Source of the DNA: Escherichia coli
GTDB lineage: Bacteria; Pseudomonadota; Gammaproteobacteria; Enterobacterales; Enterobacteriaceae
DNA: 64,000 nucleotides
NCBI RefSeq assembly: GCF_009931435.1
Contig: NZ_CP043414.1
Reading direction: 5' to 3' (one strand)
The notes under the pieces are model-generated. The model did not search any database, was not told the DNA's origin, and worked only from the letters and a program-made list of their open reading frames with translations. The translations under genes and the position numbers were made by a program. This document shows positions 2,312-9,227 of this stretch, piece after piece; within the stretch, counting starts at the first letter, position 1, and each line of letters opens with the position of its first letter.

Positions 2312-3208
<897 letters not shown>

Positions 3209-3235
3209 TTTTCCGTTGAAATGCGATGTGCTGGT

Positions 3236-3322
3236 TTGTAGGCCTGATAAGACGCGCCAGCGTCGCATCAGGCATCCGCGCATAGCCGCCGGATGCGGCG
3301 TGAACGCCTTATCCGGCCTACC
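3236..3322. repeat. REP/BIME palindromic elements in the cnoX-fetB spacer
   Basis: Two inverted REP units read directly: gtaggcctgataagacgcgccagcgtcgcatcaggc and gccggatgcggcgtgaacgccttatccggcctac. Confidence 0.8.
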
Positions 3323-3342
3323 AAACCGTGCTAATTCAATAT

Positions 3343-4122
3343 TTATTTCTTCGTCAATTGCGTCACCACCAACTGGTGGCGCGAATTATAAAACTTACGA
3401 TAGGTTAAATAGCAGGCAATAATGGTCGACAAGCTGGCGGTGGAGAGCAGCATAAAGGTCACCATAATCTGATATTTAATCGCCTTCACCGGATCAATCC
3501 CGGCAAATATCAGCCCGGACATCATTCCCGGTAAACTCACTAAGCCAACCGTTTTTGCTGAATCGACCGTCGGAATTAAAGCCGCGCGAATACTGTCGCG
3601 AATCAATATCGCTGAAGCCTGTTTCGGCGTCGCGCCAAGACTCAGTTTCTCCTGAATCTGTTGTTGTTCGCTAATCACCCGTTGCCCTAAATTGTTGTAA
3701 CACAGCCCTACCGCCACCATCGCGTTACCGGCAATCATCCCGGCAATAGGAATCACCTGCATCGGGATAAACTCAATCGACCCTGAGAGAATCAGCACCG
3801 CCAGGGTAATTCCCGCCCCGACCGTAATAGCAATAAACGATGAGATAAAAGCTTTAGCAATATATTTACTGCGTTTTTGCGCATTCCACGCCGCATTAAA
3901 GCAGATAAATAACACCATCAATAATGTCAGGCTGGCATCATCCACGCTGAAAATATACTTCAGCACATAGCCGACAATAATCAGCTGAATTATCGCCCGC
4001 CCGACGCTCCAGAGAATATCTTTCTCCAGCGCCAGTTTTTCTTTATGGCTAATTAAGATTGCTACCACCACCAGCATTAATGCCAGTGCCAATGATTCGT
4101 TAGTAATATTATGCGAGTTCAT
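3343..4122 (-). CDS. fetB: Iron export ABC transporter permease FetB (YbbM)
   Basis: Polytopic hydrophobic ORF (track 3343-4149, trimmed to MNSHNITNESL) immediately downstream of and overlapping fetA. Confidence 0.85.
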   Translation of the reverse strand: MNSHNITNESLALALMLVVVAILISHKEKLALEKDILWSVGRAIIQLIIVGYVLKYIFSVDDASLTLLMVLFICFNAAWNAQKRSKYIAKAFISSFIAITVGAGITLAVLILSGSIEFIPMQVIPIAGMIAGNAMVAVGLCYNNLGQRVISEQQQIQEKLSLGATPKQASAILIRDSIRAALIPTVDSAKTVGLVSLPGMMSGLIFAGIDPVKAIKYQIMVTFMLLSTASLSTIIACYLTYRKFYNSRHQLVVTQLTKK

Positions 4123-4931: not shown

Positions 4932-5849
4932 ATGCTTATCTTTATCCCGATTCTCATTTTTGTCGCGCTGGTCATTGTCGGCGCGGGTGTTAAAATCGTG
5001 CCGCAGGGCTATCAGTGGACAGTAGAACGTTTTGGTCGCTATACCAAAACGTTACAGCCGGGGCTCAGTCTGGTGGTGCCGTTTATGGATCGCATTGGTC
5101 GCAAGATCAATATGATGGAACAAGTGCTCGATATCCCTTCCCAGGAAGTTATCTCGAAAGATAACGCCAACGTTACCATCGACGCCGTGTGCTTTATTCA
5201 GGTGATTGATGCCCCGCGCGCGGCTTATGAAGTCAGCAATCTGGAGCTGGCGATCATCAATCTGACCATGACTAACATCCGTACCGTACTGGGTTCAATG
5301 GAACTTGACGAAATGCTCTCTCAGCGCGATAGCATCAACTCACGTTTGCTACGTATTGTCGATGAGGCCACCAACCCGTGGGGGATTAAAGTCACCCGTA
5401 TTGAAATTCGCGACGTGCGCCCACCGGCAGAGCTTATCTCTTCGATGAACGCGCAGATGAAAGCGGAACGTACCAAACGCGCTTACATCCTTGAAGCGGA
5501 AGGGATCCGTCAGGCGGAAATCCTCAAAGCCGAAGGTGAAAAACAGTCGCAAATCCTGAAAGCGGAAGGTGAACGTCAGTCGGCATTTTTGCAAGCTGAA
5601 GCGCGTGAACGTTCCGCTGAAGCAGAAGCCCGTGCCACTAAAATGGTGTCGGAAGCCATCGCCTCTGGTGATATTCAGGCAGTGAACTACTTCGTAGCAC
5701 AGAAATACACCGAAGCGTTGCAGCAGATCGGTTCTTCCAGTAACAGCAAAGTGGTGATGATGCCATTAGAGGCCAGCAGCCTGATGGGGTCGATAGCCGG
5801 GATTGCCGAGCTGGTGAAAGACAGCGCCAACAAGCGGACTCAGCCATGA
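4932..5849 (+). CDS. qmcA: SPFH/band-7 (stomatin-like) membrane protein QmcA
   Basis: 305-aa ORF with N-terminal transmembrane helix, SPFH core and a C-terminal coiled coil with EAEG/KAEGE repeats. Confidence 0.9.
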
Positions 5850-6304
5850 TGGAGTTAATGGTCGTTCACCCACATATTTTCTGGCTCAGTCTCGGCGGGT
5901 TGCTGCTGGCTGCCGAAATGCTGGGCGGCAATGGTTATCTGTTGTGGAGCGGCGTGGCAGCGGTGATTACCGGCCTGGTGGTCTGGTTGCTGCCGCTGGG
6001 CTGGGAGTGGCAAGGGGTGATGTTTGCCATCCTGACGCTGCTCGCCGCCTGGCTGTGGTGGAAATGGTTGTCGCGACGGGTTCGCGAACAAAAGCACAGC
6101 GACAGTCATCTTAACCAGCGCGGGCAGCAGCTGATTGGCCGACGTTTTGTGCTGGAATCACCGCTGGTCAATGGGCGAGGTCATATGCGCGTCGGCGACA
6201 GTTCATGGCCTGTCAGCGCCAGCGAGGATCTCAGTGCAGGTACGCATGTTGAGGTGATTGCGATAGAAGGGATAACGCTGATTATCCGTGCGGTCATCGC
6301 CTGA
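5846..6304 (+). CDS. ybbJ: NfeD-family membrane protein YbbJ (QmcA partner)
   Basis: 152-aa ORF overlapping the qmcA stop by 4 nt; hydrophobic N-terminus and a C-terminal OB-like soluble domain. Confidence 0.85.
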
Positions 6305-6386
6305 TGCGACGCTGGCGCGTCTTATCATGCCTACAAAATATGCCCGAATCGTAGGCCAGATAAGGTGCTTGCGCCGCATCCGGCAT
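6301..6386. repeat. REP/BIME palindromic elements at the ybbJ 3' end
   Basis: ctgatgcgacgctggcgcgtcttatcatgcctac ... gtaggccagataaggtgcttgcgccgcatccggca, read directly. This marks the left edge of the ybbJ-cueR insert. Confidence 0.75.
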
Positions 6387-6406
6387 ATAGCCGAGTAGAG
6401 GCAAAA

Positions 6407-6769
6407 TTACTCTTCCCGGCCTTTACCCATACTTTTTTGGTCTTCATCCGGATAATGTTTTTTTAGATATTCCAGGACGTTTTTATTGACCTTGTGTTGC
6501 GTATACACCCACCCTTTCCAGTAATCAGGCTGGTCCAGGTAAACTTCTGGCGGAATGGTGAAATCAGAAAGCGTTAACCATTCGGCTAATAGATCGGGGT
6601 TTCGTTTCTGGATTAACTGCAACAGCATAATCAGTGACATAGCTGAGGCAGGAGCCGTACTATCGCCACTTAAATATTTCCACACTGTTGACCGGTTCGA
6701 ACGAAAAAGGATCGGTAGCAATGCCCGGTCCAGATTCATTTCATTAAAAATCTTCTCAAATTCATTCAT
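6407..6769 (-). CDS. Hypothetical 120-aa protein (no motif I recognise), first gene of the ybbJ-cueR accessory block
   Basis: Intact ORF with an AGGAAA Shine-Dalgarno about 8 nt upstream; transcribed divergently from the autotransporter-like gene across an AT-rich spacer. Confidence 0.5.
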   Translation of the reverse strand: MNEFEKIFNEMNLDRALLPILFRSNRSTVWKYLSGDSTAPASAMSLIMLLQLIQKRNPDLLAEWLTLSDFTIPPEVYLDQPDYWKGWVYTQHKVNKNVLEYLKKHYPDEDQKSMGKGREE

Positions 6770-7135
6770 TTAAATTTTCCTGCCTGGCGTAAACCTCTTA
6801 AAAATTGAGATTTATCAAAGAAACGCATTTTAGCACACATCAGGAACTGCTTCACGTTTAGTCCAGAAACAGAATTTATTTCGCTTATCAAAACAAGTCT
6901 TTACTCTTTTTTACATTGAAAGAGCACGAAATGATTTCCTTTTTTATTTATATAAGAAACCATTTTTGTTTCTTATTGATGGTGTTTACGCTTACACCAG
7001 ACAAAAATGCGCTTTACATCACACAAATGGCGGCGTAGATTTCGATTAAATTGCAACGTAGTTTATTTCTTAAAACAATATTATTTGTTTCTTATGGAAA
7101 CATTAATGCGACTTATTTTGAACAAGAGAAAATGA

Positions 7136-8152
7136 ATGAAAACTGTAAACGTAGCTTTACTGGCACTCATAATTTCAGCAACATCCAGCCCTATTGTTTT
7201 AGCTGGTGATACCATTGAAGCGGCGGCAACAGAGCTTTCAGCCATTAACTCTGGCATGTCGCAATCGGAGATTGAGCAGAAGATTACCCGCTTTTTAGAA
7301 CGCACCGACAACAGCCCCGCTGCATATACCTATTTGACTGAACATCACTACATCCCTTCTGAAACACCTGATACCACTCTGACTCCCCCTGTCCAGACAG
7401 ATCCTGACGCAGGACAAAAAACCGTTGCCGCTACAGGTGATGTACAGACAACCGCCCGTTATCAGAGCATGATCAACGCCCGACAGTCTGCGGTAACTGA
7501 TGCCCAGCAAACGCAAATTACAGAGCAACAGGCGCAGATCGTAGCCACACAAAAAACGCTCGCCGCGACTGGAGATACGCAAAATACCGCGCATTATCAG
7601 GAGATGATTAATGCCAGGCTGGCGGCTCAAAATGAGGCTAATCAGCGCACTACCACTGAACAAGGGCAGAAAATGAATGCGCTGACAACCGATGTGGCAG
7701 CACAACAGCAATATGAAAGGACTCAATACGATAAACAAATGCAAAGTCTGGCGCAGAAGTCTGTCCAGGCACATGAGCAAATTGAAAGTCTGAGACAAGA
7801 TTCCGCACAAACGCAGCAACAGTTAACCAACACCCAAAACCGGGTCGCTGATAACAGCCAGCAAATTAACACGCTCAATAACCATTTCGATTCTCTGAAA
7901 AACGAAGTTGAGGACAATCGTAAAGAAGCCAATGCGGGAACTGCATCTGCCATCGCTATCGCCTCACAACCACAGGTGAAAACCGGTGACTTGATGATGG
8001 TGTCAGCGGGAGCGGGAACGTTCAACGGTGAATCTGCGGTGTCTGTAGGAACATCTTTTAATGCCGGAACGCATACGGTACTTAAAGCAGGTATTTCTGC
8101 GGATACACAATCTGATTTCGGTGCGGGTGTCGGCGTGGGATATTCGTTCTAA
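7136..8152 (+). CDS. Short trimeric-autotransporter-like protein with YadA-type C-terminal membrane anchor
   Basis: N-terminal signal peptide (MKTVNVALLALIISATSSPIVLAGD), Q-rich coiled-coil stalk with an internal ~40-aa duplication, and a C-terminal ~75 aa (ASAIAIASQPQ...GDLMMVSAGAGTFNGESAVSVG...FGAGVGVGYSF) matching the YadA anchor pattern with a terminal aromatic. Confidence 0.75.
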   Translation: MKTVNVALLALIISATSSPIVLAGDTIEAAATELSAINSGMSQSEIEQKITRFLERTDNSPAAYTYLTEHHYIPSETPDTTLTPPVQTDPDAGQKTVAATGDVQTTARYQSMINARQSAVTDAQQTQITEQQAQIVATQKTLAATGDTQNTAHYQEMINARLAAQNEANQRTTTEQGQKMNALTTDVAAQQQYERTQYDKQMQSLAQKSVQAHEQIESLRQDSAQTQQQLTNTQNRVADNSQQINTLNNHFDSLKNEVEDNRKEANAGTASAIAIASQPQVKTGDLMMVSAGAGTFNGESAVSVGTSFNAGTHTVLKAGISADTQSDFGAGVGVGYSF

Positions 8153-8205
8153 TTTTAACAGCAATTTCTTATTCGCAATTTTCCGCACATTATTTAAGGT
8201 TAACA

Positions 8206-8628
8206 ATGATGAATAGCTCCATTAAATCGTTTTCCCTGCTGGCGGTTATATTACTGGCTGGCTGTAGTTCACCCACTTCCGGCATCGCAGATTGCCAGGC
8301 GCAGGGCGTCAGTCATGATACCTGTTATCTCGCAGAACAGCAGCGTCAGACGGCTATTTTAAGTGCATCCGAGGCGCAGGCATTTAAAAATGCAGAAGCC
8401 GCACAACATGCCCAGGCGGCAAAGAAAGCCATTTATAAAGGATTTGGCGTCACCTTCAGAATGAGCAGTAAGAACTTTGCTTATCTCAATGATTCATTAT
8501 GTGCCATAGATGAAGATAATGCCGATGCCACGGTTTATCAGTCGGGTCTGTATAACGTCATTGTTTATCATCACACAGGAAAAATCGCCTTAATGAAAGA
8601 AGGCCAGTTTGTGGGTTATTTAAAATGA
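8206..8628 (+). CDS. Putative lipoprotein (140 aa)
   Basis: Signal peptide ending in lipobox L-A-G-C (LLAGCSS); same strand and immediately downstream of the autotransporter-like gene. Confidence 0.6.
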   Translation: MMNSSIKSFSLLAVILLAGCSSPTSGIADCQAQGVSHDTCYLAEQQRQTAILSASEAQAFKNAEAAQHAQAAKKAIYKGFGVTFRMSSKNFAYLNDSLCAIDEDNADATVYQSGLYNVIVYHHTGKIALMKEGQFVGYLK

Positions 8629-8816
8629 AACTCACGCTTATACATATTATGATTATTGGCGCTTTTATCTTTGCATTCTTGCAAGTGGTATTATTAGCCT
8701 CCCTGGTTCACGCTATGAATGTTAACAACGAAATCCAGGAAGGCTTATTTCAGTCGGGGCGCATTATGGTAGAAAGTTTGCAGCATATTCTTTCGGTGCA
8801 AACGGGGATTAACTGA
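8625..8816 (+). CDS. Putative small membrane protein (63 aa), translationally coupled to the lipoprotein gene
   Basis: ATGA start/stop overlap with the upstream ORF; one predicted transmembrane helix (IMIIGAFIFAFLQVVLLASLV). Its stop lies 3 bp from the convergent cueR stop. Confidence 0.4.
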   Translation: MKLTLIHIMIIGAFIFAFLQVVLLASLVHAMNVNNEIQEGLFQSGRIMVESLQHILSVQTGIN

Positions 8817-8819
8817 TTT

Positions 8820-9227
8820 TCACCCTGCCCGATGATGACAGCAGCCAGAGAGATTTTCGATAATCGGGCAATCGGCGCTGTCATCACCGGGGCAGGCATT
8901 CGCCAGCGCCAGTAGCTGGTCGCGCATGGATTGCAGCTCCTCAATGTGCCGTTCGATCTCCGCCACCTTCTCCAGCGTGCGCCGTTTTACATCGGCGCTA
9001 TGCCGCTGCGGGTCGTTAAACAGATTTACCAGTTCGCCGCTCTCTTCCAGGTTAAAGCCCACCTGGCGCGCCTGGCGCAGTAAGGTCAGTTCGTTGAGAT
9101 GCTGCTGCGTGTAGGTTCGATAACCATTTTCGCTGCGCATCGGCGGCGTCACCAGCCCCTTTTCTTCATAGAAGCGAATGGCTTTGCTGGTCAGGCCGGT
9201 AATTTTTGCTACATCGCTAATGTTCAT
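8820..9227 (-). CDS. cueR: Cu(I)-responsive MerR-family transcriptional activator CueR
   Basis: 135-aa [29 protein letters not shown]..., with the MerR HTH and the C-terminal metal-binding [10 protein letters not shown] motif. Confidence 0.95.

Follow-up and report, generated by a model that had tools for sequence, protein, structure and literature searches.

A three-base-pair convergent junction between cueR and the last gene of an O-island 29-type island in Escherichia coli

When two genes run towards each other and end almost at the same base, it has to be asked whether their transcripts overlap and whether such an overlap ties the expression of one gene to that of the other. This question is raised by a 64,000-nucleotide stretch of the E. 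coli contig NZ_CP043414.1 (RefSeq assembly GCF_009931435.1; hereafter the window), in which cueR faces the last gene of a plus-strand unit of accessory surface-protein genes. The initial annotation proposed that the two stop codons lie too close together for a terminator, that convergent transcription would produce overlapping 3′ ends, and that the stability of the cueR mRNA could thereby be linked to expression of the surface-protein genes.

The junction and the genes that meet there

The ORF list and the sequence confirm that the stops of a small peptide ORF and of cueR lie face to face with 3 bp between them. The peptide ORF (8625-8816, plus strand) ends in GGG ATT AAC TGA, with its stop at 8814-8816; the spacer TTT occupies 8817-8819; and the cueR stop, which reads TCA on the plus strand (the reverse complement of TGA), occupies 8820-8822. 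The spacing claimed by the initial annotation is therefore correct, and a gap of only 3 bp is indeed too small for a terminator. With their 3′ ends facing each other on opposite strands, the two neighbours (8625-8816, plus; 8820-9227, minus) have the layout of a convergent excludon. RefSeq/PGAP annotations of E. coli genomes show the identical layout, the gene 3 bp from cueR being annotated as a hypothetical protein of 67 aa (WP_000664216.1 or WP_000664215.1), and the locus annotation of O157:H7 likewise has the 3-bp junction. A 71-bp probe over the junction matched 953 of 5426 complete E. coli genomes, a match being at least 80% of the probe length covered. Five other Escherichia loci, all obtained via two 67-aa peptide variants of which one carries the name E. 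marmotae, have a 4-bp spacer, TTTT.

cueR (8820-9227, minus strand) encodes a Cu(I)-responsive MerR-family regulator of 135 aa, identified by NCBIfam PRK10227 (E 3.9e-93) and the Pfam families MerR_1 and MerR-DNA-bind, and its product is 100% identical to K-12 CueR. Upstream lies the gene for an HlyD-family type I secretion adaptor (9224-10399, minus strand; TIGR01843, E 8e-98), whose stop overlaps the cueR start in the sequence ATGA (9224-9227), a layout shared by E. coli loci. This overlap means that cueR can be co-transcribed with the type I secretion genes; further upstream are genes for an ABC exporter and a 6923-aa adhesin and a TolC-like gene. In K-12, at least 66 bp upstream of cueR still encode HlyD residues 370-391 with 86% identity (window 9224-9330; K-12 locus slice 5929-5994), a remnant which implies that the type I secretion/giant adhesin island was lost there by deletion; the K-12 cueR promoter lies partly within this remnant of the hlyD 3′ end. 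A promoter-like site (ATGACA, 18 nt, GATAAT; 10 of 12 matches) was also observed inside the 3′ end of cueR and antisense to it (8835-8864, plus strand). It is found in K-12 as well (locus slice 6386-6357) and could be a source of antisense cueR RNA that does not depend on the neighbouring gene.

The other side of the junction belongs to an AT-rich accessory island that extends from the ybbJ stop to the cueR stop (6305-8819), has a GC content of 32-47% compared to 54-60% in the flanks, and is missing from K-12, where cueR and ybbJ adjoin directly. Published primers (PMC5826968) mapped onto the window and the O157:H7 locus assigned three of its genes as orthologues: a 120-aa ORF (z0640; 6407-6769, minus strand), a 338-aa YadA-family trimeric autotransporter (z0639, published as 'GmrA'; 7136-8152, plus strand; Pfam YadA_anchor, E 7.3e-12; PHROG adhesin, E 2e-21), and a 140-aa lipoprotein (z0638; 8206-8628, plus strand; 'lipoprotein' in RefSeq). 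The adhesin gene opens a three-gene unit of adhesin, lipoprotein and peptide. Identity to E. coli loci was 96-100% for the 120-aa, adhesin and lipoprotein proteins and 94% for the peptide. By its position between ybbJ and cueR and its gene content, the island is recognizable as the O-island 29 (OI-29) type of EHEC O157:H7, with which it shares the site, the 120-aa ORF, the 338-aa YadA-family gene, the lipoprotein and peptide genes and the 3-bp junction; in contrast to the window, the O157:H7 peptide gene is free of a 12-bp N-terminal deletion. The description of OI-29 in EDL933 lists three genes and mentions neither the peptide ORF nor the junction (Yang et al. 2018, PMC5826968), and the OI-29 genes were found by qRT-PCR to be transcribed and condition-responsive in O157:H7 (PMC5826968). 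Searches with the lipoprotein, the peptide, the 120-aa ORF and a 409-aa protein encoded beside cueR in other strains returned no significant match in Pfam, NCBIfam, PHROGs or PADLOC; two weak sub-cutoff matches to the lipoprotein were all that appeared.

The peptide gene, the last of the plus-strand unit, encodes a small membrane or secreted protein with a single N-terminal hydrophobic helix whose last residues are VHA. Its homologues form 38 clusters, all named Escherichia or Shigella only. Their alignment shows that the normal length is 67 aa and that the window copy, at 63 aa, carries the 12-bp (4-codon) N-terminal deletion with its C-terminus and stop unchanged; a search of the protein collection gave no 63-aa variant identical to it. 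The window protein begins MKLTLIHI, as compared to MKEQRKIPLTHI in the usual form (window 8625-8645), and the loss of four codons takes away most of the positive charge ahead of the hydrophobic helix. The ORF is intact in 10 of 10 Escherichia lineages, with a dN/dS of 0.17 at a pS of 0.24 (0.08 for the lipoprotein gene and 0.008 for cueR in the same lineages). A Lelliottia genome has genes for a 138-aa lipoprotein (41% identity) and, after it, a 65-aa peptide (43% identity), the start of the second overlapping the stop of the first by 4 bp as in the window. Purifying selection, the Lelliottia pair and the PGAP annotation together indicate that the 63-aa ORF is a real protein-coding gene, as the initial annotation had taken it to be; the dN/dS and the Lelliottia pair rule out a chance ORF. 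Neither the peptide nor cueR had a match in the Sakai small-gene Ribo-seq supplements. The stop of the lipoprotein gene and the start of the peptide gene share the sequence ATGA (8625-8628), so that the two genes almost certainly lie on a single mRNA, and the overlap implies translational coupling. In Lelliottia sp. V86_10 the lipoprotein and peptide pair lies near a gene for a 600-aa serine recombinase that interrupts qmcA (locus 5102-8515), so that the pair would move with a mobile element and separately from the YadA-like gene.

Other observations concern the published description of the island and its edges. The 'transcriptional activator GmrA' (PMC5826968) is this 338-aa ORF (2539-3555 of the O157:H7 locus slice); the gmrA deletion primers flank exactly this CDS. 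The protein combines a Sec-type signal peptide with a coiled-coil stalk and a YadA_anchor domain; its RefSeq name is 'YadA family autotransporter adhesin'. Direct binding to the fliA promoter is difficult to square with a trimeric autotransporter of the outer membrane; the reported 'DNA-binding domain' of GmrA may stem from weak coiled-coil matches of the SMC-like and AAA_13 kinds. The YadA-like protein (7136-8152 in the window, about 1020-2530 in the compared Escherichia locus slices) measures 338, 419, 428, 459, 480 or 487 aa across Escherichia lineages, with a constant lipoprotein and peptide, and its stalk appears variable. Directly after the ybbJ stop there is a REP-like palindrome pair (6296-6400; fold z -3.7; sub-threshold Rfam naRNA4 matches), and the last ~8 codons of ybbJ differ strongly from those of K-12 (ITLHIRAVSS in K-12), which marks the other boundary of the island. 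In the published OI-29 deletion (PMC5826968, Table S2), the forward primer reaches precisely to the stop of cueR (8820-8822) and the reverse arm stops 9 nt short of the ybbJ end (window 6290-6304). These primers remove the last two ybbJ codons and the stop, and the deletion would therefore alter both the YbbJ C-terminus and the 3′ context of cueR.

Changing partners at the cueR stop

We compared the cueR 3′ end across the family by a CueR scan with one genome per species, which yielded 80 Enterobacteriaceae loci, or 81 with K-12, counting convergent partner ORFs of at least 60 aa. In 77 of the 81 loci such an ORF touches or overlaps the stop of cueR, with a stop-to-stop distance of -14 to +5 nt in 72 of these 77. 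The tight junction is thus not peculiar to this island and, judged from these loci, is the ordinary family-wide end of cueR. The convergent partner is ybbJ in 51 of the 81 loci and another gene in the remaining 30. Overlaps with ybbJ are mostly of 4 nt, of the TTAA or CTAG type, and in K-12 cueR extends to 514400 and the convergent ybbJ from 514401, leaving a gap of 0 bp. Citrobacter, Kosakonia, Phytobacter and others have a two-gene cargo of ~2.85 kb between cueR and ybbJ, consisting of a gene of 714 aa and a last gene of the DUF3142 family whose stop shares 2 bases with that of cueR, with a 4-nt CDS overlap (locus slice 5408-8238). In E. whittamii, E. albertii and two further Escherichia species, a 409-aa gene adjoins cueR with a 0-bp gap (locus slice 5409-6638). 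Among the 5426 E. coli genomes, the probes matched cueR|ybbJ in 3204, cueR|peptide in 953 and cueR|409-aa gene in 953; the equal counts look coincidental, as the two hit lists differ. We also considered the 3-bp spacer as a simple deletion from the 409-aa-gene arrangement and rejected it: the boundaries (ATTAAC|TGATTT|TCACCC) fit no clean deletion. Four different partners, namely ybbJ, the 409-aa gene, the DUF3142-family gene and the OI-29 peptide gene, therefore occur at the cueR stop, all ending flush with it, which indicates that the junction partner has been exchanged repeatedly in evolution.

The 3-bp gap as such is unremarkable and no statistical outlier. In two 50-kb stretches of MG1655 used as a background sample, 4 of 16 convergent pairs overlap or lie at most 5 bp apart, and the window itself holds a second tight convergent pair, aes/hemH (named by position and length), with a 4-bp overlap at 51021-51024 (pair within 50065-51983). 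What is mildly unexpected is the persistence of the tightness with changing partners. Against a background of ~0.25 per pair, four flush partners are mildly more than neutral compaction predicts and could be a sign of selection for overlap; the simplest answer to why the cargo ends are flush is deletion bias, with no cis element to preserve.

Termination and predicted overlap of the transcripts

A consensus scan combined with folding detected no canonical hairpin-plus-U-tract terminator within ~400 nt on either strand. Four candidates, at 9184-9202 and 8123-8147 on the plus strand and at 8587-8604 and 8390-8404 on the minus strand, were discarded because they fold no better than shuffled sequences (z -0.2 to -1.0); that at 8123-8147 is a weak terminator-like hairpin straddling the adhesin stop (z -0.37). 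Rfam gave no family at the junction, its only matches being sub-threshold and REP-related, at 6262-6421. If there is no intrinsic terminator within ~400 nt, termination must fall inside the neighbouring gene.

The repeat search and RNA folds did reveal an imperfect inverted repeat of 22 pairs inside the 3′ coding end of cueR (its last 74 nt, 8823-8896), with hairpin z-scores against shuffles of -3.3 on the minus strand and -3.6 on the plus strand. On the cueR mRNA its 3′ arm ends at the last sense codon. No U-tract follows on either strand (UGAAAAUCAG on the minus strand and CAUUCGCC on the plus strand), and the T-run sits on the wrong side of the hairpin. In 81 sequences the hairpin displayed no covariation (71.4% of cells paired compared to 71.3% in shuffles; score 0.089 compared to 0.087), and wobble changes freely break its pairs across the 81 species. 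The hairpin appears to be a side effect of the conserved GDDSA...GCCH codons. We rejected it as a selected or canonical cueR terminator on its shuffle-level pairing and missing U-tract, features that set it apart from intrinsic and bidirectional terminators alike. The bidirectional intrinsic terminators described by Wang et al. (bioRxiv 10.1101/2022.10.23.513370) resemble it in having a stem-loop that is stable on both strands at a convergent boundary; the window stem-loop differs in lying inside the cueR CDS, with no U-tract on either strand and no covariation (bioRxiv 10.1101/2022.10.23.513370).

The RNA beyond each stop has a composition of the kind associated with Rho, with an untranslated C-rich, G-poor stretch of ~70-80 nt or more on both strands. 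The first 78 nt past the cueR stop, antisense to the peptide gene (8742-8819, minus strand), are rut-like, with 28% C, 15% G and a C/G ratio of 1.83, as is the RNA 80-210 nt past the peptide stop, antisense to cueR (8895-9024, plus strand), with 35-37% C and a C/G ratio of 1.35-1.53. These values are compatible with Rho loading on untranslated RNA, an excess of C over G being a weak predictor of such loading.

Published data on K-12 bear directly on the equivalent junction. The cueR-ybbJ pair is among the 165 convergent excludons of MG1655 (ExcludonFinder, Table 1, PMC12288877), its transcripts overlapping in at least 50% of 58 RNA-seq samples (PMC12288877). A Rho region was reported on the cueR strand at 514988 (+), with a score of 15.4 and p = 2.7e-12 (Adams et al. 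2021, PMC7815308, Supplementary file 2), the position being coarse as the scoring windows span 800 nt, and a start of this plus-strand RNA at the cueR promoter being unprovable from the score. Reads upstream and downstream of it were 61/5 in untreated cells and 68/86 with bicyclomycin (PMC7815308). The region lies ~590 nt past the cueR stop (514400), antisense to ybbJ and qmcA. The supplementary tables assign a Term-seq 3′ end to neither cueR nor ybbJ (PMC7815308), and Adams et al. report no minus-strand Rho region or 3′ end near ybaT, glsA or fetA (PMC7815308). In K-12, on these published data (PMC7815308), cueR-strand transcription crosses the junction and Rho stops it inside the opposite operon.

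The window shares with the K-12 cueR-ybbJ excludon (PMC12288877) the cueR gene, its 3′ end and hairpin, a stop gap of 0-3 bp and the lack of an intrinsic terminator between the two genes. Unlike in K-12, the partner is the 63/67-aa OI-29 peptide gene, so that the RNA past cueR differs, and the overlap was measured in the K-12 pair only. With the Rho-terminated read-through and antisense RNAs of K-12 (Adams et al. 2021, PMC7815308) the window has in common untranslated RNA with C above G right after the stop and no intrinsic terminator, a likeness to that case in base composition only. Stops that overlap or abut are also found in hemH-aes, zapC-ycbX, yccX-tusE and sxy-yccS (4-bp overlaps), all on the convergent excludon list (PMC12288877). 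These are core-genome pairs, whereas the partner of cueR in the cueR/peptide pair was acquired horizontally and varies among strains.

On balance we favour the reading that this is simply a compact junction, at which Rho-dependent termination would occur within the opposite gene and the 3′ overlap would be a by-product. The flush junction would be inherited from an ancestral Enterobacteriaceae arrangement of cueR and ybbJ tail to tail, the partner in this lineage being the last gene of the OI-29-type island (YadA-like adhesin, lipoprotein and 63/67-aa peptide). With neither gene having an intrinsic terminator of its own, RNA polymerase would run past each stop into the opposite gene. The untranslated RNA there is C-rich and G-poor, so Rho would most likely terminate transcription within a few hundred nucleotides. 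The outcome would be complementary 3′ extensions of ~100-600 nt, an overlap that would be a structural by-product of the absent spacer. Any mutual interference, whether polymerases collide or RNase III cuts the duplex, would be of a generic kind and probably slight, with no dedicated link between copper sensing and the adhesin genes. We infer that read-through of the K-12 kind occurs at the window junction, with small consequences; the AT-rich island may be silenced, in which case convergent transcription would be rare in practice. Of the two proposals made for transcription in the initial annotation, overlapping 3′ ends are thus to be expected, given that no terminator was found and by analogy with the K-12 cueR-ybbJ precedent, and the regulatory consequence found no support. 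The exchange of ybbJ, the 409-aa gene, the DUF3142-family gene and the OI-29 peptide gene at this junction speaks against a partner-specific logic in the proposed tie between cueR mRNA stability and the surface-protein genes. Because the partner is interchangeable, any effect would be generic to the compact junction and not partner-specific.

Three other accounts of the junction were weighed against this one. The least unlikely is that the junction is a selected excludon, in which the spacer is kept absent so that transcription of the neighbour lowers cueR mRNA and vice versa, through collision or RNase III. The presence of cueR-ybbJ in the MG1655 excludome (PMC12288877) is consistent with such selection, as is a tight junction that 77 of 81 loci share and that forms anew with each partner, when the background tightness is just ~25%. 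However, the identity of the partner varies, so that no specific regulatory logic is conserved, and a junction of 0-4 bp preserves itself, since nearly any indel would harm a gene, so that it can be conserved without selection for overlap. CueR senses Cu(I) allosterically, its level being low and more or less constant, which also counts against this account. Less likely still, there may be no convergence in practice, with the island silent or its transcription ending before the peptide gene, so that only cueR read-through would cross the junction. The low GC content of the island (32-47%, with flanks at 54-60%) would fit a silent island, the terminator-like hairpin at the adhesin stop (8123-8147) would fit early termination, and the peptide ORF is unannotated in EDL933, where three OI-29 genes are listed (PMC5826968). 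This must be set against the shuffle-like stability of that hairpin (z -0.37), the transcription of OI-29 measured in O157:H7 by qRT-PCR (PMC5826968), and the purifying selection on the peptide ORF together with its 4-bp overlap with the lipoprotein gene.

We give even less credence to the 8823-8896 hairpin as a boundary on both strands, pausing the polymerases and positioning their collisions or protecting trimmed 3′ ends, which would leave defined ends and little overlap. Its position exactly at the gene boundary and its stability far beyond that of shuffles (z -3.3 and -3.6) speak for such a role, and a nascent-RNA stem-loop is reported to be necessary for positioned collisions of convergent polymerases (bioRxiv 10.1101/2022.10.23.513370). 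The hairpin nevertheless lacks a U-tract on both strands, has the T-run on the wrong side and shows no covariation across 81 species (71.4% compared to 71.3% paired); in K-12, which has the same hairpin, the cueR-strand signal runs on to the Rho region ~590 nt further along, and cueR has no Term-seq end assigned (PMC7815308). The compact junction with Rho-dependent termination thus remains the reading that we prefer. Least probable in our judgement is a flush junction selected for a response of cueR mRNA to the opposite envelope/adhesin module, or created by hairpin-directed, site-specific insertion at the cueR 3′ end.

Consequences for the locus and the family

The type of arrangement is known, and cueR-ybbJ has already been catalogued (PMC12288877); the pair formed by cueR and the OI-29 peptide gene is a new example. 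As cueR appears to lack a dedicated terminator, its 3′ context would change in any construct or deletion with an endpoint at the cueR stop, the published OI-29 deletion being one example. The 67-aa ORF should be counted as a fourth gene of OI-29. If the overlap had regulatory weight, copper homeostasis would depend in part on the expression of a horizontally acquired adhesin module in about one-sixth of E. coli strains, including O157:H7. If the junction were selected or formed by hairpin-directed insertion, the cueR stop would be a conserved docking point for accessory genes in Enterobacteriaceae. Together, the evidence points to a generic consequence of a spacer-less junction over a regulatory link, and the locus offers a natural series, one gene with four convergent partners, in which to test whether tail-to-tail overlap matters.
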